Below, piece by piece: positions 2,403 through 50,803 of a stretch of 64,000 nt of DNA. Within the stretch, counting starts at the first letter, position 1. Each line of letters begins with the position of its first letter. The position numbers and the translations under genes were made by a program. A model generated the notes under the pieces. That model searched no databases. It saw only the letters and a program-made list of their open reading frames with translations, and had not been told where the DNA came from. The DNA is from Candidatus Aminicenantes bacterium (GTDB taxonomy: Bacteria > Acidobacteriota > Aminicenantia > Aminicenantales > Saccharicenantaceae): assembly GCA_017999365.1 (NCBI GenBank), contig JAGNLW010000002.1, positions 160,530 to 224,529 on the forward strand, read 5' to 3'.

Positions 2403-3344
2403 ATGCGACGGCACGTGATCCTGGCGCTGGGCGCGGCCGCCGTCCTGGCGGCCTGCCGCGGCGGCGCTCAGGACGCCGCGTCCCTCATGCGGGGCCCCGA
2501 CGGCATCCCCGGTTGGGCCCGGACGGGCGAAACGCAGACCTTCAACCGCGAGGGGCTCTACGGCTACATCGACGGCGGGGCCGAGATCGTCCTGCCCTAC
2601 GGCTTCCGGGAGCTCTCGGTATCGAGATACAGGCCGGCCGGCGGCGGCGAGAAAGAGATCACGCTCGAGATCTACAGGATGGCCACGGGCGAGGACGCCT
2701 TCGGCCTGTACGCGACCAAGCTCGAGGGCGGCGAGGCGCCCGCTCCCGGCGTCCTCTCCGACAGCTGGATCGTTCCCGGCCAAGCCGCCCTGGTCAAGGG
2801 CCCGTTCACGGTCAACGTCCTGGGCCCCGACTGCGGCGAGGGCGAGATCGCCGCCTTCGCCGCGGCCGTCGAGCGCCTCGTCCCGGGAAGCGGCACGATC
2901 CGGCCCGAAGGTCTGGGACGGCTGCCGCGCGACGGCATGGTCCCCTCGAGCGCCCGCTTCCTCAAGGGCGCGGTGGCCGCGGCCAACGAATCGCCGTTCC
3001 TCGAAGGCGAGGCCTGGGGCTTCGGCAAGCCCGGCGCCGGCGGGACCGCGGCCACGGTGGCCTACACCGCGAAATACGCAGCCGAACCCGGCGTCTCGAA
3101 ACTGGCTTTCGTCGCGTTCGCGGCGGCTCCCCCGGACGGCGTTTTGGAAGAAGCCGTCCGGTCCTCGTTCGACTATTATCTCCAGGACGTCCGCGAAGCC
3201 GGGGGGGTCATCGAAGGCCGCAACGCGGCCGGACGCCTGTTCCTCTTCGCCCGCCGGGGCGGGTTCGCGGCCCTCGTTCTCGGCGAACCGGACGAGACCG
3301 CCGCCCGGGCCCGGCTCGAGGCGGTCCTCTCGGCCCGCCGCTAA
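2403..3344 (+). CDS. hypothetical lipoprotein
   Basis: Signal peptide + Cys (LAACRGG); non-low-complexity composition. Confidence 0.55.
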   Translation: MRRHVILALGAAAVLAACRGGAQDAASLMRGPDGIPGWARTGETQTFNREGLYGYIDGGAEIVLPYGFRELSVSRYRPAGGGEKEITLEIYRMATGEDAFGLYATKLEGGEAPAPGVLSDSWIVPGQAALVKGPFTVNVLGPDCGEGEIAAFAAAVERLVPGSGTIRPEGLGRLPRDGMVPSSARFLKGAVAAANESPFLEGEAWGFGKPGAGGTAATVAYTAKYAAEPGVSKLAFVAFAAAPPDGVLEEAVRSSFDYYLQDVREAGGVIEGRNAAGRLFLFARRGGFAALVLGEPDETAARARLEAVLSARR

Positions 3345-3358
3345 CCCCCCCGCTCCGC

Positions 3359-4531
3359 TCAGCGCGCCGCGGTGAACCGGCGGGCCGCCGCGGCGTAGAG
3401 GCGGGCGGCCTGAAGGACTTCGTCGAGGGCGACGCTCTCCTCGGCCGAATGGGCCAGGGCCAGCTCGCCCGGCCCCCACACCAATGTCGGGATGCCGGCC
3501 TCGCGCGCGAGCAGGGCCCCGTCGGTCCAGGCCGGGAAGACGTCGAGCGGCGGCGCCGCGAGCCCCAGGTCGGAGAAGGCCCCCAGCGCCGCCCCGACCA
3601 GCGGATGCCCCTTGTCGATGACGAGCGGCCCGTGGAGCATGGTGGCCATCCCCCCGGGCATCCGCGCCAGGCTCGTCGCGAGGCCTGGGCGGGCGGCCCG
3701 GACCTTGGCCAGCAGGGCCTCGAGGTCGCCCATGACCTGGTCGATGGTCTCCGTCGTGACCCAGCGCCGATCGAGCTGCACGACGCAGTCGGCCGCGACC
3801 ATGCTCGGCTGCTGGCCCCCGGCGATGGTGCCCAAGTTGATGACGGGCAAGCCAAGGACCGGATCGCCCCGGCGTCCAAAGGCCGGCACGAGCTCGGATT
3901 CGACGAGCGAGGCGAAATGGGCCGCCGCGGCGATGGCGCTGATGCCCGCTTCGGGCGTGCTGCCGTGGGCCGCCCGGCCCCGGAAACGGACCTCGAGCCA
4001 CTCCAGGCCCTTGTGACCGATCGCCACGCGGTTCGACGTCGGCTCGCCGACGACCGCGCCCTCGGCCCGTAGGCCGCCGCGGATGAGGGCCTCGGCGCCG
4101 AGGCTCTCCATCTCCTCGTCGACGACGGCCGCGAGCGTGACTTTCCCGGACGCAAGCCCGCCCTCGTCGCGGATGTCGACGAGGGCCCCGGCCATGGCGG
4201 CCAGGGCGCCCTTCATGTCGACGGTGCCTCGGCCGAACATCCGGCCGTCACGGATCGCGCCCGAAAAAAAGTCGACCGGCGAGCCGTCGTTGGGCGATAC
4301 GGTATCGAGGTGGCCGCAGAGGACGAGATGGGGCCCGGGCTTCGGCCCGGCGACCGACGCGAGGACGTTCGGCCTCCCGGGCCGAACCTCGACGAGCTCG
4401 GCCGGGACGCCGCGCCCGCCGAGATAGGCCGCCAGCGCCCGGGCGGCGGCCTCTTCCTGCCGGTCGACGCCGGGATGGCTGGGGGCCTTGACCATTTCCA
4501 ACAGAAGCTCGAGGATGCCGCGGTCGTCCAT
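3359..4531 (-). CDS. M20 family metallopeptidase (ArgE/DapE-like deacylase)
   Basis: Motifs HLVLCGHLDTV, DMKG, HGSTPEAG characteristic of peptidase M20/acetylornithine deacetylase family. Confidence 0.85.
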   Translation of the reverse strand: MDDRGILELLLEMVKAPSHPGVDRQEEAAARALAAYLGGRGVPAELVEVRPGRPNVLASVAGPKPGPHLVLCGHLDTVSPNDGSPVDFFSGAIRDGRMFGRGTVDMKGALAAMAGALVDIRDEGGLASGKVTLAAVVDEEMESLGAEALIRGGLRAEGAVVGEPTSNRVAIGHKGLEWLEVRFRGRAAHGSTPEAGISAIAAAAHFASLVESELVPAFGRRGDPVLGLPVINLGTIAGGQQPSMVAADCVVQLDRRWVTTETIDQVMGDLEALLAKVRAARPGLATSLARMPGGMATMLHGPLVIDKGHPLVGAALGAFSDLGLAAPPLDVFPAWTDGALLAREAGIPTLVWGPGELALAHSAEESVALDEVLQAARLYAAAARRFTAAR

Positions 4532-4688
4532 TTCGCCTCCTTGCGGCGCGCTTTCTCCCGAACTATATTGGAAGTCGGGGACGGGTTCAACCGGACCGGC
4601 GGATCTCCGGCCCCCTATGGTAAAATATTAGCATCGAAAGGCAACCGGCGCCGCGCCCGAGGCGTTTTCTAAACAAGGAGATCCGCCC

Positions 4689-5897
4689 ATGAACCGCAAA
4701 CGCACCCTGATCCCGCTCGTCATCGTCCTCGCCCTGGCCTCGCCCGTCCTGGCCGGCCAGAAGATCGAGACCGATAACGGCGTCCGCGTCGTCCACAACT
4801 CCGGGCCCGGGACCTGGGGCAAGACGCCCCAGGTCGCCCTCGAGCCCGTGCGCACCCTCGGAGACGTCGACACGGCCGACGAGAACCTGGCTTTTTACAT
4901 GCCTTCGGCCATCGCCGTCGACGGCGCCGGGAACCTCTACGTCGTCGACACGGGCAACCACCGCATCCAGAAGTTCGGCCCGGACGCGAAGTACCTGGCC
5001 ACGTTCGGCCGGCAGGGCCAGGGCCCCGGCGAGTTCCAGTACCCCGCCTGGCTGGCCATCGACGCCAAGGGCCTCATCTATGTCACCGACCCGTTCAACC
5101 AGCGCATCCAGGTCCTGACGCCCGACGGCAAGGACCACAAGGTCATCAAGGGCCTCGAGCAGGGGGCCGGCCCGGTCTTCCTGGGAGCCGGCGGCGAGTT
5201 CGTCACCGGCGCGCCCCGGATGCGCTTCATGATCAACCGGGAGAACGAAAAGCCCGCGCCCCTGCCCAAGCTCGTCCAGGTCCTCGACGCCGAGGGCAAG
5301 CCCGTCCGCGCTTTCGGCGAGCCCCGCGACTTCGGTTCCGAGCTGGTCAACAACGCCGGCAACGAGGTCCTCATGACGGTCGACGCGGCCGGCCAGGTCT
5401 ACCTGGCCTACACCGTCCAGAACCGGATCGAGAAATACGCGGCCGACGGCAAGCTCCTCTGGCGGGCCGACCGGGAGCTCCCCTACTCCATGGAGATCAA
5501 GGACAAGGGAGAGATCAAGAGGGAGGGCGGCAGCGTCTCCATCCGCGGGCCGGAGCTGAACCGCTGCGCGGCCGGCATCGCCGTCGACGGCCGGGGCCGC
5601 GTCTGGGTCGTCACCCAGACCCGCCAGCTCAGGAAGGAGGAGCAGGTCGGGATGGCGATGACCATGAGCATGGGCGCCTCGGGCGGACAGACCATCGGCA
5701 TGAAGCCCCAGGGCGAGGGCCAGGAGCTGAGGACGACCGACGCCTACAAGCTCGAGGTCTTCGGCCCGGACGGCGTCCTGCTCGGGTCGATGCCGCTCGA
5801 CTCCTTCGTCAACGGCGTCTTCGTCTTCGGCGACCGCCTCTTCCTCCTGGACAAGCTCCGCGGCACCCAGTTCAGGGAGTTCCGCATCAAGGGCTGA
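4689..5897 (+). CDS. NHL repeat-containing secreted protein (beta-propeller)
   Basis: Signal peptide; repeated YVVDTGNHRIQKF / YVTDPFNQRIQVL NHL-repeat signatures. Confidence 0.8.
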   Translation: MNRKRTLIPLVIVLALASPVLAGQKIETDNGVRVVHNSGPGTWGKTPQVALEPVRTLGDVDTADENLAFYMPSAIAVDGAGNLYVVDTGNHRIQKFGPDAKYLATFGRQGQGPGEFQYPAWLAIDAKGLIYVTDPFNQRIQVLTPDGKDHKVIKGLEQGAGPVFLGAGGEFVTGAPRMRFMINRENEKPAPLPKLVQVLDAEGKPVRAFGEPRDFGSELVNNAGNEVLMTVDAAGQVYLAYTVQNRIEKYAADGKLLWRADRELPYSMEIKDKGEIKREGGSVSIRGPELNRCAAGIAVDGRGRVWVVTQTRQLRKEEQVGMAMTMSMGASGGQTIGMKPQGEGQELRTTDAYKLEVFGPDGVLLGSMPLDSFVNGVFVFGDRLFLLDKLRGTQFREFRIKG

Positions 5898-5978
5898 CCG
5901 CGCGCACCCGGATTCCGTAATCGCCCTCCCCCGGCCGACTAAAGGCTGATCGTATTCATAATACCGGGAGGTATCTTC

Positions 5979-6971
5979 ATGCACACACGGTCCAAGAACA
6001 TCGCCATCGCGCTGGCCGCCCTGTTCGTCGCCTGGCTCGCCGCCACGCCGGCGACGGCCGCGGCTTCCGGTGTCCCCGGCTCCGAGACCGGGAAGGCCAA
6101 GGCGGCCGTCAAGCCCCTGGATTTCCTTAGCGTCCAGGACGACGAGGAGGACGCCGACACCCCGGCCGCCTTCTCCAGGCTCAGCCTCCGGCTCTACGGG
6201 GGCTACAGCCACATGCTCGCCAACGATGTGAACAAGGGCTCGAGCTATTATTTCCAGCTCGTCGAGGCCTACGCGGCCGAGGGGTACGGGACCGCCACCG
6301 GAGGCTACTCGCCTCTCCACGGCGGCTACGACTTCGGGGCCGACCTCGTCTACCAGATCACCCCGTCCTTCGGGATCGGCGTGGGCGCCGGCTACATCCG
6401 CAGCTCGGCCGATTCGCTGGCCACGTTCACCGGCGAGGGGACGGTCGACCTGCTCGCCTCGACGATGCTCTCCGCCGTCCCGATCCGGCTGGGCCTGTTC
6501 CTGGACGTCCCCCTGGGCGGGAAGCTGGCCCTGACGGCCAACGCCGGAGCGGCCTATTACCTGGGCCTCAAGTTCACGGGTATGCAGGGCCTGGAGTTCG
6601 CGGCCGACGACTGGATGAGGATGTCCCTCGAAGCCACCGAGAGAAGCGGCCTCGATATCGGCTTCCACGGCAGCCTGGGCTTCGAGTACAAGTTCACCCC
6701 CAAGCTCGGCTTTTTCGTCGAGGGCCTGGGCCGGTACGCCAAGCTCAAGAACTTCGAGTCGGTCACGGGAACGCAGGAGTCCTCCGGCGGCCTGTCGGAG
6801 GATACCGAGGGCAAGCTCTATCTCGTCACCGGCAGCATCGGGGACTCCGAGATCAGCATGTTCACGATCTCGGAGACCGAGCCCTTGCCGGATCCCGGCA
6901 CGACCGTCCGCGAGCCCAAGTTCGACCTCAGCGGCTTCAGCCTGCAGGCGGGCTTCCGGATCCGGTTCTGA
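5979..6971 (+). CDS. putative outer-membrane beta-barrel protein
   Basis: Signal peptide, alternating aromatic/Gly-rich strands, C-terminal ...GFRIRF (terminal Phe typical of OMPs). Confidence 0.55.
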   Translation: MHTRSKNIAIALAALFVAWLAATPATAAASGVPGSETGKAKAAVKPLDFLSVQDDEEDADTPAAFSRLSLRLYGGYSHMLANDVNKGSSYYFQLVEAYAAEGYGTATGGYSPLHGGYDFGADLVYQITPSFGIGVGAGYIRSSADSLATFTGEGTVDLLASTMLSAVPIRLGLFLDVPLGGKLALTANAGAAYYLGLKFTGMQGLEFAADDWMRMSLEATERSGLDIGFHGSLGFEYKFTPKLGFFVEGLGRYAKLKNFESVTGTQESSGGLSEDTEGKLYLVTGSIGDSEISMFTISETEPLPDPGTTVREPKFDLSGFSLQAGFRIRF

Positions 6972-46224: not shown

Positions 46225-46253
46225 TTGACAAATAGACATTTGAATATTACAAT
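46225..46253 (+). promoter_or_regulatory. near-consensus sigma70 promoter TTGACA-N17-TACAAT upstream of vapBC
   Basis: TTGACA 46225-46230, 17-nt spacer, TACAAT 46248-46253; 33 nt before vapB ATG. Confidence 0.45.
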
Positions 46254-46286: not shown

Positions 46287-46529
46287 ATGAGAACGACCAT
46301 CGAATTGTCGGACGACCTGATCGCCGCCCTCCACGCCCTGGCGGTGAGGAAAGGGCACCGGGGCTATTCCCGGATCATGGAGGAGGCAGTCAAGCACTAT
46401 CTCCGCGATCTCGAGAAAAAAGAGGGGACTTGGAGCGTCCTTATGAAGATGAGGGGGAGCTGGACCGCCGAAGAAGCCGAAGAGACGAGAAAGAAACTCG
46501 AGGAGCTACGGACAAATTGGCCCGCCTAG
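46287..46529 (+). CDS. vapB: VapB-type (RHH/MetJ-Arc) antitoxin
   Basis: MRTTIELSDDLIAALHALAVRKGH... RHH N-terminus; immediately precedes PIN-domain gene. Confidence 0.75.
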   Translation: MRTTIELSDDLIAALHALAVRKGHRGYSRIMEEAVKHYLRDLEKKEGTWSVLMKMRGSWTAEEAEETRKKLEELRTNWPA

Positions 46530-46903
46530 TGGTCGCGGACACCGACGTCGTCATCGATTTCTTCACCGACGAGGCCCCACGGGCCCGGGTCGTGGCGGAG
46601 CTGCTGACAGAGAAGCGCTTGGCCGTCGCGGCCATTTCAGTCTTCGAGCTCTATGCGGGGATCCGGGGTGCCAAGAGACTGAAACAGCTGGAATCGTTCT
46701 TCACGCACGTGCCTGTCTTGCCGCTCGACGTCCTGGCGGCCGCCTATGCGGGCCGGATCTATACGGATCTCCGGTCGGCGGGAGTGACCGTCGGCAACCA
46801 GGACATCCTCATCGCCGGGACCTGCCTGGCGAACGGCCTTCCCCTCTTCACCGGGAACACATCCCACTTCGCCTCCATCAAGGGCCTAACCCTCTTCCCC
46901 TGA
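46529..46903 (+). CDS. vapC: VapC PIN-domain ribonuclease toxin
   Basis: GTG start overlapping vapB stop (TAGTG); LVVADTDVVIDFF... PIN acidic residues, C-terminal LPLFTGNTSHF. Confidence 0.75.
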   Translation: MVADTDVVIDFFTDEAPRARVVAELLTEKRLAVAAISVFELYAGIRGAKRLKQLESFFTHVPVLPLDVLAAAYAGRIYTDLRSAGVTVGNQDILIAGTCLANGLPLFTGNTSHFASIKGLTLFP

Positions 46904-47017
46904 ATTGAGCGGAGGTGCGCAAGGCCGGCCGGCCAACGTTGGTGGCGTCGACCCGCCCGCCCATTTCGGCTTGACTTAGCCTTTTCGCTTGAATATCCTC
47001 AGATCGAGGGCGAGTCG

Positions 47018-47191
47018 ATGATGGGCGCAACGCCTGATTATTGGCTTTGGGATTCCGCCTATGAATGGTCAAAGGTGATGGAAATGGCTCAGCTGACACT
47101 CGATCTCATGAAGGCTTTTCAGGAGCGCCTAGAAGCGTTTGCTACATCAGTTTCAGTATCAATTGGTTTTGCCCTCTCCGGGGCCATCTAA
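47018..47191 (+). CDS. small hypothetical ORF (57 aa) in low-GC island
   Basis: Manual translation MMGATPDYWLWDSAYEWSKVMEMAQLTLDLMKAFQERLEAFATSVSVSIGFALSGAI; too short for ORF track. Confidence 0.2.
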   Translation: MMGATPDYWLWDSAYEWSKVMEMAQLTLDLMKAFQERLEAFATSVSVSIGFALSGAI

Positions 47192-47198
47192 CAACAAC

Positions 47199-47510
47199 AT
47201 GAAGATCCGGAGCACTGTTTCCTGGGGCGCAATTGGCGCTGCGATCTTTATTGCCGTGGGCATTTTGACTGTGCTTCTCGGTGAGGACGGAGGCTTCTGG
47301 GGAAATTTCTTTATGATATTAAGTATTCCTGCAGTCCATATCTGGGCGATGCTGCTAAGCCTATTCTTCGGTACTGTTGAGGGGCCGCCCAGCGGTTATC
47401 GGATATATTTCTTGATCTATATGGGTACGCTTGGCTTCTTCGTAGGCAGTCTGTCAAGAGCTCTGCGTATGAGATGGAGGAGGCGTCGGGGGGATCAGAA
47501 CGATGGATGA
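47199..47510 (+). CDS. small membrane protein (3 predicted TM helices) in low-GC island
   Basis: MKIRSTVSWGAIGAAIFIAVGILTVLLGE...; hydrophobic segments; low GC. Confidence 0.4.
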   Translation: MKIRSTVSWGAIGAAIFIAVGILTVLLGEDGGFWGNFFMILSIPAVHIWAMLLSLFFGTVEGPPSGYRIYFLIYMGTLGFFVGSLSRALRMRWRRRRGDQNDG

Positions 47511-47612
47511 TCTGCATGCTAATTGGCTAATAGCCGGTCGAGAACGGTAAAATGCGGTGTCAAAGAATGGCAATGGACTGATTGATCTGGAATCGTCTCC
47601 CGGAGCCGGCTC

Positions 47613-48731
47613 TTGGACGAGCAGAGGCGAGAGCGGGAGGGGAAGGAAGCCGATAAAGACTCAGACCGAGCCCGGGAGAGGAGGACCGATGCCGCCGGGC
47701 CGGCCGATAGAACAGATAGGTCTGGCGATTGCTCATCCGGTACGGCCAAAATGATGTCCGCTTCCCCCGTCGGAAACTTCTACATCTACTCCTCTGACGG
47801 CAAGCTGCTCCAGGTGTACGATGTTTATGGGGCGCTGCTAAAGGACTTCATCTATATGGGAAGCCGGCTTATCGCCGAGTACGACCATGTCGGTGCGCGC
47901 CTTCTCTACTACACGCCGGACCAGATCAATTCCACCCGCGTCGTGACGGACCAGAGCGGAAATGTCGTCTATTCGGCGACCTATGCTCCCTATGGCGAGA
48001 TCAGGACTGAGCAGGGTACCGTGGACCCGTTGCCGAAGTTCTCGGGCAAGGAGCGCGACGCCGAATCGCAGCTCGATTACTTCGGGGCGAGGTACTTCGA
48101 CAGGAATATCTATAGGTTCATTTCGGTGGACCCCGGTGCTACTTCGAGTGACGCGGCGATAAACCAACAATACTTGAATCTTTACTCATATTGCCTAAAT
48201 AACCCCGCCCTTGGTATGGACCCAGATGGAAGAGATGTAATTATCAGCGTATTCCGGACAAGCTCGACCCCTAACAGCACGACAGGCATTATGTTCCTTT
48301 GCGATAAGTCGTTATATCCGACCGAATCTCTGGGGCCGACCTGGGAGCTCGGCTATAACAATAATGCTCAAAATATTAGCTGCATTGAGTCCGGCATTTA
48401 TACGGGACATGCCGTGCTCCGCCTAGACCTAGGATACGATGTCATTCAATTGGATAATGTTAAGGGAAGGATGTCTATTCAGATTCACCCTCATGGAAGG
48501 CGCAATTACGGATGTATTGGAATGAAACGGGGGTGGGCCTTTCAGTCGCTCATGGGCAAGCTTGGTATCATGGGTAATTTCCCGTATTTTGGTCCGAACG
48601 GGGGGATTAATATTGATGTCCCGATTAGCAATGGTCCGATAATTGTCTACGTCTTTTGGTGGGACTTTCCCAAAATTAAAGAGCTAATACCTATCGTGAC
48701 ATATACATACAAGGTAACCAAGGTCTTCTAA
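47613..48731 (+). CDS. orphan Rhs/YD-repeat C-terminal fragment with variable toxin tip (likely real start ~47751 MMSASPVG)
   Basis: YD repeats (YYTPDQINSTRVVTDQSGNVV, YAPYGE), RHS core end FSGKERDAESQLDYFGARYFDRNIYRFISVDPG...NLYSYCLNNPALGMDPDGR, then ~185-aa unrelated C-terminal domain; low GC. Confidence 0.7.
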   Translation: MDEQRREREGKEADKDSDRARERRTDAAGPADRTDRSGDCSSGTAKMMSASPVGNFYIYSSDGKLLQVYDVYGALLKDFIYMGSRLIAEYDHVGARLLYYTPDQINSTRVVTDQSGNVVYSATYAPYGEIRTEQGTVDPLPKFSGKERDAESQLDYFGARYFDRNIYRFISVDPGATSSDAAINQQYLNLYSYCLNNPALGMDPDGRDVIISVFRTSSTPNSTTGIMFLCDKSLYPTESLGPTWELGYNNNAQNISCIESGIYTGHAVLRLDLGYDVIQLDNVKGRMSIQIHPHGRRNYGCIGMKRGWAFQSLMGKLGIMGNFPYFGPNGGINIDVPISNGPIIVYVFWWDFPKIKELIPIVTYTYKVTKVF

Positions 48732-49399
48732 TGAAAAAAAGAATGCATCCGCAGTTCTGCTTGAAGGTGGGCGGTCTTTCGCTCTTTTCCTTGCTGATAT
48801 TATTTCTTTTCTATGGCCCATTATTGGCATCGCACCAGGAAACGGGAATAGACTGGAATAAAGTGCAAGAAGCTTTCAAGTCCTATATAAACGATCCATC
48901 ACAAATTCACGGCCACGAACTCGTGAGAGTGCTTCCGACAACAAGACATGTCCTCGGTGAAATGGAAGCTGCATATAAAGACCGTCTGGCGACCCTTAGC
49001 CTGATCTTCGCCGCCGATTATTTTAGTCAGTTCATCGAAAGGGTTCGTGGGGGGGATAGATACGCGATAGAAGCCGCTTTTAGGATCTTCAATTTCACCG
49101 ACGGGGGAGCGTCAGAGGAGATAATGATAATATTAGGAGATTCGTTGCGGGAAAACCCGCTTGATTTTCTCATTGTCGCAAAAAAGCACAAAAAACTGTC
49201 AAACTCCGAGGATTATCTTGCCCCAGCAATCATGACAAGATATGAAGTTGGCTCTGATCTCGAGACAAGTGAATTGAGGTTACGGCTAAAAGCCCTTGAG
49301 AGTGTAGATGAGCCTGGTCTTTTCGAGGTTAGAAGAGCTTTAATTGAAGAGATATCGAAGGCACTACGGGACGACCTCCCGGAAAAAGTGGGCGCTTGA
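48731..49399 (+). CDS. candidate cognate immunity protein (signal peptide/TM anchor)
   Basis: Start overlaps toxin stop (TAATG); N-terminal hydrophobic segment; AT-rich codon usage matching toxin gene. Confidence 0.5.
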   Translation: MKKRMHPQFCLKVGGLSLFSLLILFLFYGPLLASHQETGIDWNKVQEAFKSYINDPSQIHGHELVRVLPTTRHVLGEMEAAYKDRLATLSLIFAADYFSQFIERVRGGDRYAIEAAFRIFNFTDGGASEEIMIILGDSLRENPLDFLIVAKKHKKLSNSEDYLAPAIMTRYEVGSDLETSELRLRLKALESVDEPGLFEVRRALIEEISKALRDDLPEKVGA

Positions 49400-49492
49400 A
49401 ATGGGACACGCCACTCGAAGCTCGAGACTGCCCGTTACAGCGGCACCAGAATTACAAGTCCCCTTTCTTTCCGAGGGATCTGGGCGTAGGGA

Positions 49493-50803
49493 CTAGAACA
49501 ACCGCAGACGCTTGACCTCGCCGATGAGGAAGAGCGAGCCGGCGATGACGACCGGCGTTCGGGGACATGTCCCTCGGGTACGTGTCCCCAAAGACAAGGC
49601 CAGCTCGACGGCCTTGCGGGTGTCGGGCTCGAGGAAGATCGGGCCTTTGAAGGACGGCGGCGCGGCGGCCAGGAGCTCCTCGGGCGAGGCCGAGCGCTTG
49701 TAGGGGACGCGGGTCAGGACGACCGCGGCGGCCCGCGGGAAGAGGACCCGGGTCATGGCCGCGAGGTCCTTGTCCTTCATGGCCGCGAAAACGAGGACGA
49801 CCGGGCGGCGGATCACGTCCTCGAGGTGGACGGCCAGCGCTTCGGCGCCTTCGGGATTGTGGGCCCCGTCGAGGAGGACGAGGGGACGGCGCCGAACCGT
49901 CTCGAGCCGGCCTTCCCAACGCGCCTCTCGAATAGCCCCGAGGACCTTATTCTTACCGAACGGCTTCCAGGTCCGGGACAGGACTTCCGTCACGGCGATG
50001 GCCACGGCGGCGTTGGCGCCCTGGTGGCGGCCGGCGAGCCCGGGCGTGAAGGCGTAGCGGCCGTTCTCGCCCGCGTAGACGAACCGGTATCCGTCGCGGG
50101 TCTTGACCGTCTCGAGCCCCCTCCCCTTCCCGAAGACCTCGGTCAGGGCCGCTCCCCGTTCGCGCGCCGCCTGCCGGATGACGCGCAGGGCCGGCCCGCC
50201 GGCGACGCCGCAGACGACGGGCACCCCCGGCTTGACAATGCCGGCCTTCTCGAAGGCGATCTTCGCGAGCGTCGCGCCGAGGTGCTCCTCGTGGTCCTTG
50301 GCGATGGTCGTGACGACGGAGACGAGGGGCCGGACGACGTTGGTGGCGTCGAACCGGCCGCCCATGCCGACCTCGAGCACGGCCGCGTCGACCCCGCGCT
50401 CGGCGAACTCGAGGAAGGCCAGGGCCGTCAGGACCTCGAAATAGGTCGGGTGATAGACGAGCCGGCCCTCGGCCATGAGGGCGTCGATGACGCCCTTGAG
50501 CCGGGCCACGAGCTCGCGGAAGCGCGCCGGGGCGATGGCCTTCCCGTCGATACGGACCCGCTCCTCCACCCGGGCCAGGTGCGGCGAGGTGTAGAGGCCC
50601 GTCCTCAGCCCGTGGGCCCGTATGATCCCGGCCAGCATGGCCGAGACCGAGCCCTTGCCGTTCGTCCCGGCCACGTGGACCGACAGGAATTGGTTCTGGG
50701 GATTGCCGAGGGCGGCGCACAGTGTCGTGACGTTCTCGAGGCCGAGCTTGATGCCGAAGTGCTGGAGGCGGCCGAGATAGTCCCGGCACTCGGACGGGGT
50801 CAT
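49493..50803 (-). CDS. folC: bifunctional folylpolyglutamate synthase / dihydrofolate synthase
   Basis: HVAGTNGKGS P-loop, Mur-ligase family similarity throughout; start MTPSECRDYLGRLQ. Confidence 0.85.
   Translation of the reverse strand: MTPSECRDYLGRLQHFGIKLGLENVTTLCAALGNPQNQFLSVHVAGTNGKGSVSAMLAGIIRAHGLRTGLYTSPHLARVEERVRIDGKAIAPARFRELVARLKGVIDALMAEGRLVYHPTYFEVLTALAFLEFAERGVDAAVLEVGMGGRFDATNVVRPLVSVVTTIAKDHEEHLGATLAKIAFEKAGIVKPGVPVVCGVAGGPALRVIRQAARERGAALTEVFGKGRGLETVKTRDGYRFVYAGENGRYAFTPGLAGRHQGANAAVAIAVTEVLSRTWKPFGKNKVLGAIREARWEGRLETVRRRPLVLLDGAHNPEGAEALAVHLEDVIRRPVVLVFAAMKDKDLAAMTRVLFPRAAAVVLTRVPYKRSASPEELLAAAPPSFKGPIFLEPDTRKAVELALSLGTRTRGTCPRTPVVIAGSLFLIGEVKRLRLF

Follow-up and report, generated by a model that had tools for sequence, protein, structure and literature searches.

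A candidate orphan Rhs toxin/immunity cassette with a DUF5675-type tip in an Aminicenantes genome

Results

Organization of the locus

The window analysed here is a 64,000-nucleotide stretch of an Aminicenantes-type Acidobacteriota genome. Between vapBC and folC, adjoining the ATP synthase operon, it carries an array of Rhs-derived toxin and immunity genes, the features of which are as follows.

46225–46253, + strand: promoter-like site TTGACA-17-TACAAT upstream of vapB, matching 11 of 12 consensus positions
47018–47191, + strand: C-terminal remnant (~40 aa) of a second Rhs toxin tip, of another type (weakly DUF6765/Zn-phospholipase-C-like); the remaining gene is deleted
47199–47510, + strand: small multi-pass membrane protein, candidate orphan immunity gene for the deleted phospholipase-like tip
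47586–48233, + strand: 5′-truncated rhs fragment, comprising a charged linker (SRSRLLDEQRRE...), the last YD repeats and the Rhs-associated core
48234–48731, + strand: toxin tip of 165 aa, a divergent DUF5675 member predicted to adopt the YkuD (L,D-transpeptidase/carboxypeptidase) fold
48731–49399, + strand: candidate cognate immunity protein of 222 aa, with a signal-peptide-like or anchor N-terminus followed by an all-alpha solenoid

The GC content is 45–57% across the region and about 70% in the flanks, in line with the low GC that a preliminary description of this DNA noted for the toxin and the gene behind it. The window and locus L002 alike combine low-GC tips with GC-rich bodies. As island boundaries, the window offers no tRNA, and its flanking repeats are short and chance-like. 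A scan of the region for promoters and terminators gave site counts not above shuffled expectation, with the vapB site as the sole strong one; judged from its sequence, this site is a possible source of read-through transcription for the whole + strand block, vapBC and cassettes included. We rejected vapBC as part of the mobile island, vapBC being conserved together with its flanks in the syntenic genome L008 (86% DNA identity).

The rhs fragment lacks a shell and a resident rhs gene

The preliminary description placed the toxin in an ORF at 47613–48731. This ORF is present (372 aa, TTG start), but the open frame actually begins at 47586, behind a stop codon at 47583–47585. All of the Rhs motifs attributed to it are in the sequence, including FSGKERD (aa 143), DYFGARYFD (aa 155) and ISVDPG (aa 170), followed by NLYSYCLNNP (aa 189), DPDGR (aa 203–207) and IQIHPHGRRNYGCIGM (aa 289–304). 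The demarcation motif GMDPDGR closes the rhs fragment at 48213–48233, and the PxxxxDPxG-type boundary before the variable tip is present as NNPALGMDPDGR; the tip behind DPDGR is 165 aa long, rather than the ~185 aa first given. TIGR03696 (Rhs_assc_core) matches aa 124–206 with an E-value of 1.4e-18 (67.2 bits versus a cut-off of 32.5), establishing significant Rhs homology for the YD/core segment.

Homology to full-length relatives begins at about 47595, just past the stop codon, and at residue 620 of the full-length L002 protein (tblastn). Specifically, the fragment aligns to residues 620–932 of the L002 main protein (at least 1002 aa), with the rhs portion, 47586–48233, corresponding to residues 620–837, while window positions 47754–48094 are 92.7% identical in DNA to the main-gene core at 2072–2412 of L002. 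Upstream of the core domain there are only about 130 aa of linker and terminal YD repeats; the large YD-repeat shell and the N-terminal trafficking element (signal peptide, PAAR, DUF6531) are absent. Because these parts are absent here and present in the relatives, the locus is a fragment of an Rhs gene and not a complete member, and the designation as an orphan Rhs tip stands. The in-frame ATG proposed as an independent start does lie at 47751; in the full-length proteins the matching residue is an internal Met, and no recognisable ribosome-binding site precedes the codon.

A tblastn search found no Rhs body elsewhere in the 64-kb window, and there is no main rhs gene at the site in the window, in the independent assembly L001 (99.4% identical) or in L008, in agreement with the earlier remark that no Rhs N-terminal body is nearby. 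Since the body is missing from all three, an assembly artefact is an unlikely source of the fragment, and we rejected it, the independent assembly and the syntenic genome both agreeing with the window. In addition, the ten large window ORFs gave housekeeping or unrelated Pfam families, or no match, with no T6SS components among them, which bears out the reported lack of PAAR and VgrG genes nearby. No near-identical full-length partner was found among GTDB species representatives, a set that does not include the window's own genome (best match 73%), or in the protein database (best core match 82%, the returned matches all being short).

The full-length relatives are Rhs proteins of 2095–2269 aa in which a Sec-type signal peptide leads into DUF6531, RHS repeats and Ig-like inserts. 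The full-length Rhs protein of L017 carries a C-terminal DUF5675 domain (E 8e-21), and the main Rhs protein of L081 also ends in a DUF5675-type tip. The closest relative of the window toxin, P0004 (74% identical), occupies the classical orphan position, behind a main rhs gene of 2150 aa.

A second, degraded cassette lies upstream

The upstream neighbours had been listed as vapBC and small membrane ORFs. Both are there, but the small ORFs belong to the same array, as a tip remnant (47018–47191) and a membrane immunity gene (47199–47510). Residues 203–241 of the second orphan toxin of L002 (orphan-2) align to window positions 47048–47164 with 62% identity (tblastn), and window positions 47061–47214 are 92.9% identical in DNA to L008 positions 4868–5021, where an intact tip of 259 aa ends. 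The intact L008 tip protein gives weak matches to DUF6765 (E 8.9e-5) and Zn_dep_PLPC (E 0.017). The product of 47199–47510 reaches no Pfam family at threshold and is 60% identical to the membrane ORF at 4461–4850 of L002, which follows the intact orphan-2 toxin; the membrane-gene position is also occupied in L008. The vapC–folC site is conserved between genomes that are ~86–89% identical in DNA, yet the cassettes differ, those of L008 between vapC and folC not being those of the window.

A divergent DUF5675 tip with a predicted YkuD fold

A HMMER search of 1.8 billion representative proteins with the tip returned 18 matches, whereas a word-indexed homologue search with the 165-aa tip returned none. 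DUF5675 (PF18925) is matched by 17 of the 18 relatives, these being the 17 scanned, and by the L002 tip, with a best E-value of 6e-30; one relative that matches DUF5675 also matches Tlde1_dom weakly. The window tip itself matches DUF5675 over profile positions 3–74 of 114 with 24.6 bits (E 2.4e-5), below the gathering threshold of 26.7 bits. A local family profile gives it 6.9e-36, a circular value, the window being in that profile. The tip and its DUF5675 relatives have the motifs ELPW.NN..N.SCIP.G.Y and GR..IQIH.......GCI in common, and residues E38, S49, C50, R79, H85, G93 and C94 are invariant across the tip alignment. On these sequence grounds the tip is a divergent DUF5675 domain, and the suggestion that it may be a new toxin family finds no support.

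The preliminary description had also seen a weak resemblance to YkuD-type L,D-transpeptidases. Pfam YkuD (PF03734) and YkuD_2 gave no match to the window tip at E ≤ 10, the window protein itself has no Tlde1 Pfam match, PDB sequence searches with the tip and its profile returned chance-level matches and no L,D-transpeptidase, and a PHROGs search gave nothing significant. When the family profile was aligned to Bacillus subtilis YkuD with hhalign, the 9-residue GCI motif alone was aligned (to GCIRM), with a probability of 1.2%, so the link between the tip and YkuD rests on structure rather than on sequence. The predicted structure of the tip shows the YkuD beta-sandwich catalytic fold, and the targets of the model's strong structural neighbours are, without exception, stem peptides of peptidoglycan or the attachments of these peptides. 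Predicted structures of phage DUF5675 proteins match the tip model as well; the C-terminal ~55 aa of the tip form an extension that is poorly modelled. The candidate catalytic residues, His292 (48486–48488) and Cys301 (48513–48515), are both invariant in the family. The window tip has NYGC in place of (S/T)HGC and thus lacks the second His of canonical L,D-transpeptidases.

The downstream gene is a candidate exported immunity protein

The stop codon of the toxin and the start codon of the next gene overlap by one nucleotide, as reported (TAATG, 48729–48733), an arrangement compatible with translational coupling of tip and immunity gene. The protein encoded by 48731–49399 opens with MKKRMHPQFCLKVGGLSLFSLLILFLFYGPLLA and has a Kyte-Doolittle 19-mer maximum of 2.25, which confirms the hydrophobic signal or anchor start; the signal-like stretch covers aa 1–34 (48731–48832). 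An AF2 model contains 12 helices (pTM 0.70), and neither Pfam nor NCBIfam holds a family for the protein.

Homologues of this protein, with 26–76% identity, lie directly 3′ of DUF5675-type Rhs tips in seven cassettes at five other loci:

L002 (two), L003, L006, L080, L081 (two)

Because of this recurrent linkage, 48731–49399 very probably encodes the cognate, periplasm-exposed immunity protein. The N-termini of the homologues are hydrophobic in all cases inspected; together with the conserved linkage to the tip, they favour the periplasm-facing role assigned to the gene at the outset. Furthermore, immunity identity tracks toxin identity, a tip identity of 67% going with an immunity identity of 45%, and 60% with 43.5%. 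Comparison of the window cassette with its relatives gave saturated synonymous sites in both tip and immunity gene and pN far below pS, a result uninformative on selection in the orphan state.

Discussion

The locus is an ordinary orphan toxin/immunity island: the cassette type is well known, the phylum is poorly studied and the toxin domain was previously unassigned. Specifically, 47586–48731 represents what is left of an rhs gene at its 3′ end: the Sec signal, DUF6531, YD-repeat shell and Ig-like inserts are gone, and the linker, terminal YD repeats and core up to DPDGR are retained, fused to the 165-aa DUF5675 tip. For the tip, the prediction is a cysteine L,D-peptidase acting in the periplasm of a target cell, where, by analogy with Tlde1, it would cut or exchange peptidoglycan stem peptides; the helical immunity protein, exported or membrane-anchored, is predicted to bind and block it there. 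Lacking a shell and an export signal, the orphan fragment is probably not deliverable, so the toxin/immunity pair most likely guards against kin armed with this tip on a full-length Rhs protein. The orphan may also be a spare tip that recombination at the conserved core could place on a full-length rhs gene; we keep this role as a proposal because no full-length rhs partner from the window's genome was found and the best core match elsewhere is 82%. We put the probability of the whole explanation, including tip activity and immunity, at roughly three in four.

The closest competitor, an immunity-only island, would make the toxin fragment an untranslated relic, with selection acting on 47199–47510 and 48731–49399 alone, against the toxins of neighbours. 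The upstream cassette, which kept its immunity gene and lost almost the whole toxin, points that way, as does the reverse case in L002, where the homologue of the window toxin is down to its last ~31 codons and its immunity gene P0003 is intact; a fragment without shell, signal peptide or recognisable ribosome-binding site before ATG 47751 fits too. Nevertheless, the 381-codon frame is intact in DNA of 45–55% GC and keeps every invariant family residue, and the closest orphan-position relatives (P0004) are intact as well. We consider this reading somewhat unlikely; it largely overlaps with the explanation that we prefer, the sole difference being whether the toxin part keeps any use. The fully intact toxin frame, and the 5′ boundary motif that it has in common with a solitary module in L006 (SRSRLMDEQRREREGKEAD), would also fit autonomous function. 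A mini-Rhs gene of ~326–381 aa (linker, terminal YD repeats, core and tip) would then rely on an internal or vapBC promoter for its expression and on an unspecified export or loading route, with the core as adaptor. Short RHS-core proteins are indeed very common in these lineages (a core search gave 86 proteins, all of 91–282 aa), L009 and L066 contain five to six of these ORFs in tandem, and the vapC–folC site carries such modules in two genomes without a main gene. Their 5′ ends vary, however: module A of L008 begins ~10 codons inside the conserved block, and many array members begin at negative offsets into the core, the pattern that random truncation generates. Moreover, fragmented metagenome contigs are expected to yield short gene calls, ATG 47751 is an internal Met in the full-length proteins, and the module has no signal peptide or other trafficking domain, which makes autonomy very unlikely.

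The predicted target of the tip could also differ from that in our preferred explanation. A YkuD-like fold may have been recruited elsewhere, for example to lipoprotein-peptidoglycan links (as in DpaA) or to a protein or lipid target, in keeping with an SHGC motif that lacks its second His and with the family-specific ELPW-NN-N-SCIP motif (invariant Glu, Ser-Cys), for which no counterpart was mapped on YkuD. We regard this as improbable, given that the strong structural neighbours share a peptidoglycan-directed activity, that phage DUF5675 proteins are found in lysin and virion contexts, and that the export signals on the immunity proteins fit a periplasmic target. A broader and equally doubtful extension of the orphan-cassette explanation would see in the vapC–folC site a dedicated, long-lived store of tips and immunity genes without a resident rhs gene, the cassettes of which swap with a distant Sec-type rhs gene through linker and core, or are deployed alone as short core-plus-tip proteins. 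DUF5675 would then be a second, Tlde1-independent L,D-peptidase lineage of bacterial warfare, with a new alpha-solenoid immunity family, in diderms possibly without T6SS.

The orphan-cassette explanation suggests a likely role and ecology for DUF5675, a Pfam family without experimentally established function: besides its occurrence in phage proteins, it would act as an L,D-peptidase-type cell-wall toxin in bacterial competition, and an uncharacterised immunity family of helical, exported proteins is tied to it here. The Rhs repertoire of Aminicenantes and other Acidobacteriota, little-studied lineages with few cultured members, includes large Sec-type toxins and extensive arrays of spare tips, several of which appear peptidoglycan-directed (DUF5675, Tlde1_dom, VanY/M15). 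The general picture of polymorphic toxin systems is unchanged, and is extended to a new lineage and a new domain–immunity pair.

Several known systems resemble the cassette in part. Among the polymorphic toxin systems of Zhang et al. 2012, some RHS toxins carry the Tox-LD-peptidase domain. As there, a domain with a predicted L,D-peptidase fold stands C-terminally on an RHS-repeat toxin with a dedicated downstream immunity gene, but the immunity families of Tox-LD-peptidase, Imm16 and Imm57, were not detected in the window, and Acidobacteriota are not among the lineages listed in Zhang et al. 2012. Tlde1/Tae5 (DUF2778, PF10908) comprises T6SS L,D-carboxypeptidase/transpeptidase effectors, with catalytic residues H121 and C131 in Tlde1 and Tldi1 as immunity protein; some genomes carry Rhs-fused DUF2778, the His-Cys spacing of the family is short, and its immunity proteins have Sec signals. 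The window tip, by contrast, is DUF5675 (Tlde1_dom is weakly matched in one of 19 relatives), has NYGC for SHGC and no T6SS context, and its immunity protein is an unrelated, all-alpha one rather than DUF2195. DUF5675 itself, termed 'C82-like' in a 2026 lysin preprint, consists mostly of small phage and bacterial proteins. The window tip has the motifs of this family but, unlike its typical members, scores below threshold, lacks two residues between His and Cys, runs on for an extra ~55 aa at its C-terminus and, unlike the standalone proteins, is joined to an Rhs core.

In Enterobacteria, orphan rhs-CT/immunity modules lie behind rhs genes as C-terminal displacement arrays (Jackson 2009, Poole 2011, Koskiniemi 2014). 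Unlike these modules, the window cassette has no main rhs gene at its site in any of three assemblies (window, L001, L008), and the related full-length proteins are Sec-signal Rhs proteins with Ig-like inserts, not PAAR/T6SS-linked ones. Like them, it is 5′-truncated, keeps part of the core and has a variable tip, with a GC content below that of the host, and an immunity gene; its core is close to a full-length gene (92.7% DNA identity, L002), and a tip-specific immunity gene follows.

A truncated rhs 3′ end outside any resident rhs gene

The fragment in the window is a truncated rhs 3′ end. Re-examination of the window sequence bore out the ORF, motifs and coordinates of the preliminary description, including the in-frame ATG at 47751. 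The features of the locus are as follows.

46225–46253: promoter-like site, near-consensus σ70-like, in front of vapB
46287–46903: vapBC (vapB, RHH antitoxin, 46287–46529; vapC, PIN toxin, 46517–46903), with the ATP synthase operon on one side and the cassette island on the other
47018–47191: remnant of another Rhs tip (last ~40 aa)
47199–47510: membrane-protein partner of the remnant tip
47613–48731: toxin ORF, TTG start, 372 aa; DPDGR boundary at aa 203–207, IQIHPHGRRNYGCIGM at aa 289–304
48731–49399: candidate immunity gene, 222-aa product

The toxin ORF contains the motifs FSGKERD, DYFGARYFD, ISVDPG and NLYSYCLNNP and matches the Rhs-associated core (NCBIfam TIGR03696) over aa 124–206 (E = 1.4e-18; score 67 bits, where the cut-off is 32.5), so its Rhs identity is no chance resemblance. 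The tip extends 165 aa beyond DPDGR. The open frame starts at 47586, with a stop codon immediately 5′. Residues 620–932 of a protein of at least 1002 aa encoded on L002, a related metagenomic contig, align to window positions 47595–48533, and positions 47754–48094 are 92.7% identical in DNA to the core of this protein, in which the Met at 47751 is an internal Met (KLMSASPVGNFYIYS versus KMMSASPVGNFYIYS). The GC content falls to 45–57% over about 46.0–49.45 kb, compared with about 70% for the genome; in the window and in L002, low-GC tips are joined to GC-rich gene bodies.

In Aminicenantes and other MAGs, full-length relatives measure 2095–2269 aa. A Sec-type signal peptide and DUF6531 open these proteins; RHS repeats and then Ig-like inserts (Kre9_KNH, HYDIN/ASH) follow, and the C-terminal part consists of the terminal YD/core block shared with the window fragment and a tip. 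In four Aminicenantes-type MAGs (L017, 4619–10903; L010, 2723–9076; L014, 4232–11038; L081, 2577–9029), the Ig-like domains are inserted after the RHS-repeat region and ahead of the terminal YD/core block, an architecture unusual for Rhs, and no PAAR domain was seen in these four proteins. As had been described, no Rhs body is present nearby, nor anywhere within the 64-kb window. Ten large window ORFs were scanned; they either lack a match or fall into families with housekeeping or unrelated functions, among them Mfd, FtsK and a TonB-dependent receptor, and none is a T6SS component. An independent NCBI assembly labelled ‘Acidobacteria bacterium’ (L001, GCA_012516875.1; 99.4% identical) has an identical arrangement with 14 differences over 46.9–49.45 kb, and an assembly artefact, the alternative raised in the preliminary description, is therefore unlikely.

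The MAGs behind several of the closest loci (L004, L006, L010 and L017) bear the labels Eubacteriales, Clostridia, Saccharibacteria or Omnitrophota. The Rhs cores of these loci share 52–73% identity with Aminicenantes sequences, and L006 has GC-rich DNA and diderm-type neighbours (TonB-dependent receptor), suggesting that these contigs are mis-binned or mislabelled.

The tip is a DUF5675 domain

The sole Pfam match of the tip is a sub-threshold match to DUF5675 (24.6 bits, E = 2.4e-5; threshold 26.7 bits). A word-indexed homologue search with the tip returned zero matches, and HMMER, run exhaustively over 1.8 billion representative proteins, returned 18, five of them linked to Rhs cores and most others stand-alone proteins of 116–158 aa. 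We aligned 17 of these matches with the L002 main tip and the window tip. All 19 aligned tips match DUF5675 (best E = 6e-30; the window's own match being sub-threshold), one also matches Tlde1_dom, and bona fide DUF5675 domains end the main proteins of L002 and L017 (E = 7e-16 and 8e-21). The alignment contains the motifs ELPW.NN..N.SCIP.G.Y and GR..IQIH...GCI, with E38, S49, C50, R79, H85, G93 and C94 (tip numbering) invariant; H85 and C94 are His292 and Cys301 of the 372-aa ORF.

An AlphaFold model built from the tip alignment is confident for residues 1–110 (pLDDT 83–95), and a Foldseek search with it against viral models retrieved phage DUF5675 proteins and a phage ‘L,D-carboxypeptidase/transpeptidase’. 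The tip is a DUF5675 domain with a predicted YkuD fold, and its His/Cys pair is intact. Sequence profiles found no connection between the tip family and YkuD, and the motif that ends in Cys301 reads NYGC instead of SHGC. The tip is not the new toxin family that had been considered. The last ~55 tip residues (~111–165; window 48564–48731), which read FPYFGPNGG...WWDFPKIKE...VTYTYKVTKVF, are poorly modelled; they are conserved in the Rhs-linked DUF5675 subfamily and absent in stand-alone and phage DUF5675 proteins.

Short RHS-core proteins of related metagenomes (P0022–P0107) carry many different tips, including DUF5675, Tlde1_dom (P0102) and VanY/Peptidase_M15_4 (P0106), suggesting a lineage bias to peptidoglycan-targeting tips. 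Oddly, P0093 is annotated as thioredoxin, yet is 83% identical over 40% of the core query.

The tip is linked to a probably exported partner

The partner of the tip is a linked helical protein that is probably exported. Its gene starts inside the toxin stop codon (TAATG), and the 222-aa product matched no Pfam or NCBIfam family. Homologues lie directly 3′ of DUF5675-type tips in the related loci L002 (two copies, 35% and 76% identical to the window protein), L003, L006 (27%), L080 (43.5%) and L081 (two copies, 45% and 26%); none of these proteins matched Imm16, Imm57 or DUF2195. Across linked pairs, immunity identity rises and falls with toxin identity. We propose an immunity role for 48731–49399 mainly because this linkage is conserved. 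Together with the hydrophobic N terminus of every homologue inspected, the linkage supports the periplasm-facing immunity gene of the preliminary description, and an exported partner is in keeping with a toxin acting in the periplasm.

Cassette content varies at the site between vapC and folC

The upstream ‘small membrane ORFs’ described previously are present, but they are members of the same cassette array. The counterpart of the remnant tip at 47018–47191 is intact in L002 (3740–4489) and L008 (4219–4998), with weak likeness to DUF6765 and Zn-phospholipase C. L002 is the mirror image of the window: of the homologue of the window toxin, the final ~31 codons are left, whereas the immunity gene of that homologue, P0003, is intact and shares 76% identity with its window counterpart.

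L008, from a related genome, is syntenic with the window at 86–89% DNA identity: the site is flanked at one end by vapBC and the ATP synthase operon and at the other by folC and accD. The cassettes between vapC and folC differ. As vapBC is conserved along with the flanks, it is ruled out as part of the variable island, which therefore spans about 46912–49496.

L008 (CAWDSL010000021.1) 2698–5737: variable stretch, syntenic with window 46912–49496
L008 cassette 1: core and M15/VanY-like tip (SLHELGLAID motif), then a 153-aa signal-peptide protein
L008 cassette 2: intact DUF6765/Zn-PLC-like tip, then a membrane protein
L006 (CAZIQR010000031.1) 4292–6152: solitary core-plus-DUF5675 tip and immunity homologue, between purF and a TonB-dependent receptor gene

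The cassette content of the site varies between related genomes, marking it as a hot spot of cassette turnover, and the site in L008 is likewise without a main rhs gene. In these lineages, a main rhs gene is commonly followed by an array of short core-plus-tip ORFs (five in L009, six in L066, also in L010, L037 and L049); P0004, the closest relative of the window toxin (74% identical), is such a classical orphan, behind a 2150-aa Rhs and that protein's immunity gene. No rhs body is present at the L006 locus, and the 5′ boundary motif SRSRLMDEQRREREGKEAD common to L006 and the window suggests that a defined module may be able to relocate.

Proposed role of the cassette

The tip is predicted to be a cysteine L,D-peptidase that attacks the stem peptides of peptidoglycan, and the product of 48731–49399 would neutralise this enzyme in the periplasm; alternatively, the substrate could be other than peptidoglycan. 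Because the fragment lacks a shell and signal peptide, it is probably not delivered. It would instead provide a reserve of immunity and a spare tip that could be recombined by way of the conserved core, and the site in front of vapB might possibly drive the + strand block. The fragment could also be an immunity-only relic or an autonomous mini-Rhs; the latter is favoured by the abundance of short RHS-core proteins and by the same 5′ motif in the solitary L006 module, but the variable truncation points count against it.

Published parallels argue for the YkuD/Tlde1 assignment ventured in the preliminary description, on the basis of fold rather than sequence profile: DUF5675 has been named ‘C82-like’ (2026 preprint), Tox-LD-peptidase is listed on RHS toxins (Zhang et al. 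2012), and for Tlde1/Tae5 there are reports of fusions to Rhs, of a His–Cys spacing shorter than that of YkuD, and of immunity proteins bearing a Sec signal. The short His–Cys spacing noted in the tip is real, yet such spacing is already known from this branch of the YkuD fold. Orphan Rhs tips are established, as are L,D-peptidase toxin tips carried by Rhs and immunity proteins of the periplasm; new here are DUF5675 serving as an Rhs tip, an immunity family without earlier description, the occurrence in Aminicenantes with Sec-type Rhs proteins, and a cassette island without a resident rhs gene.
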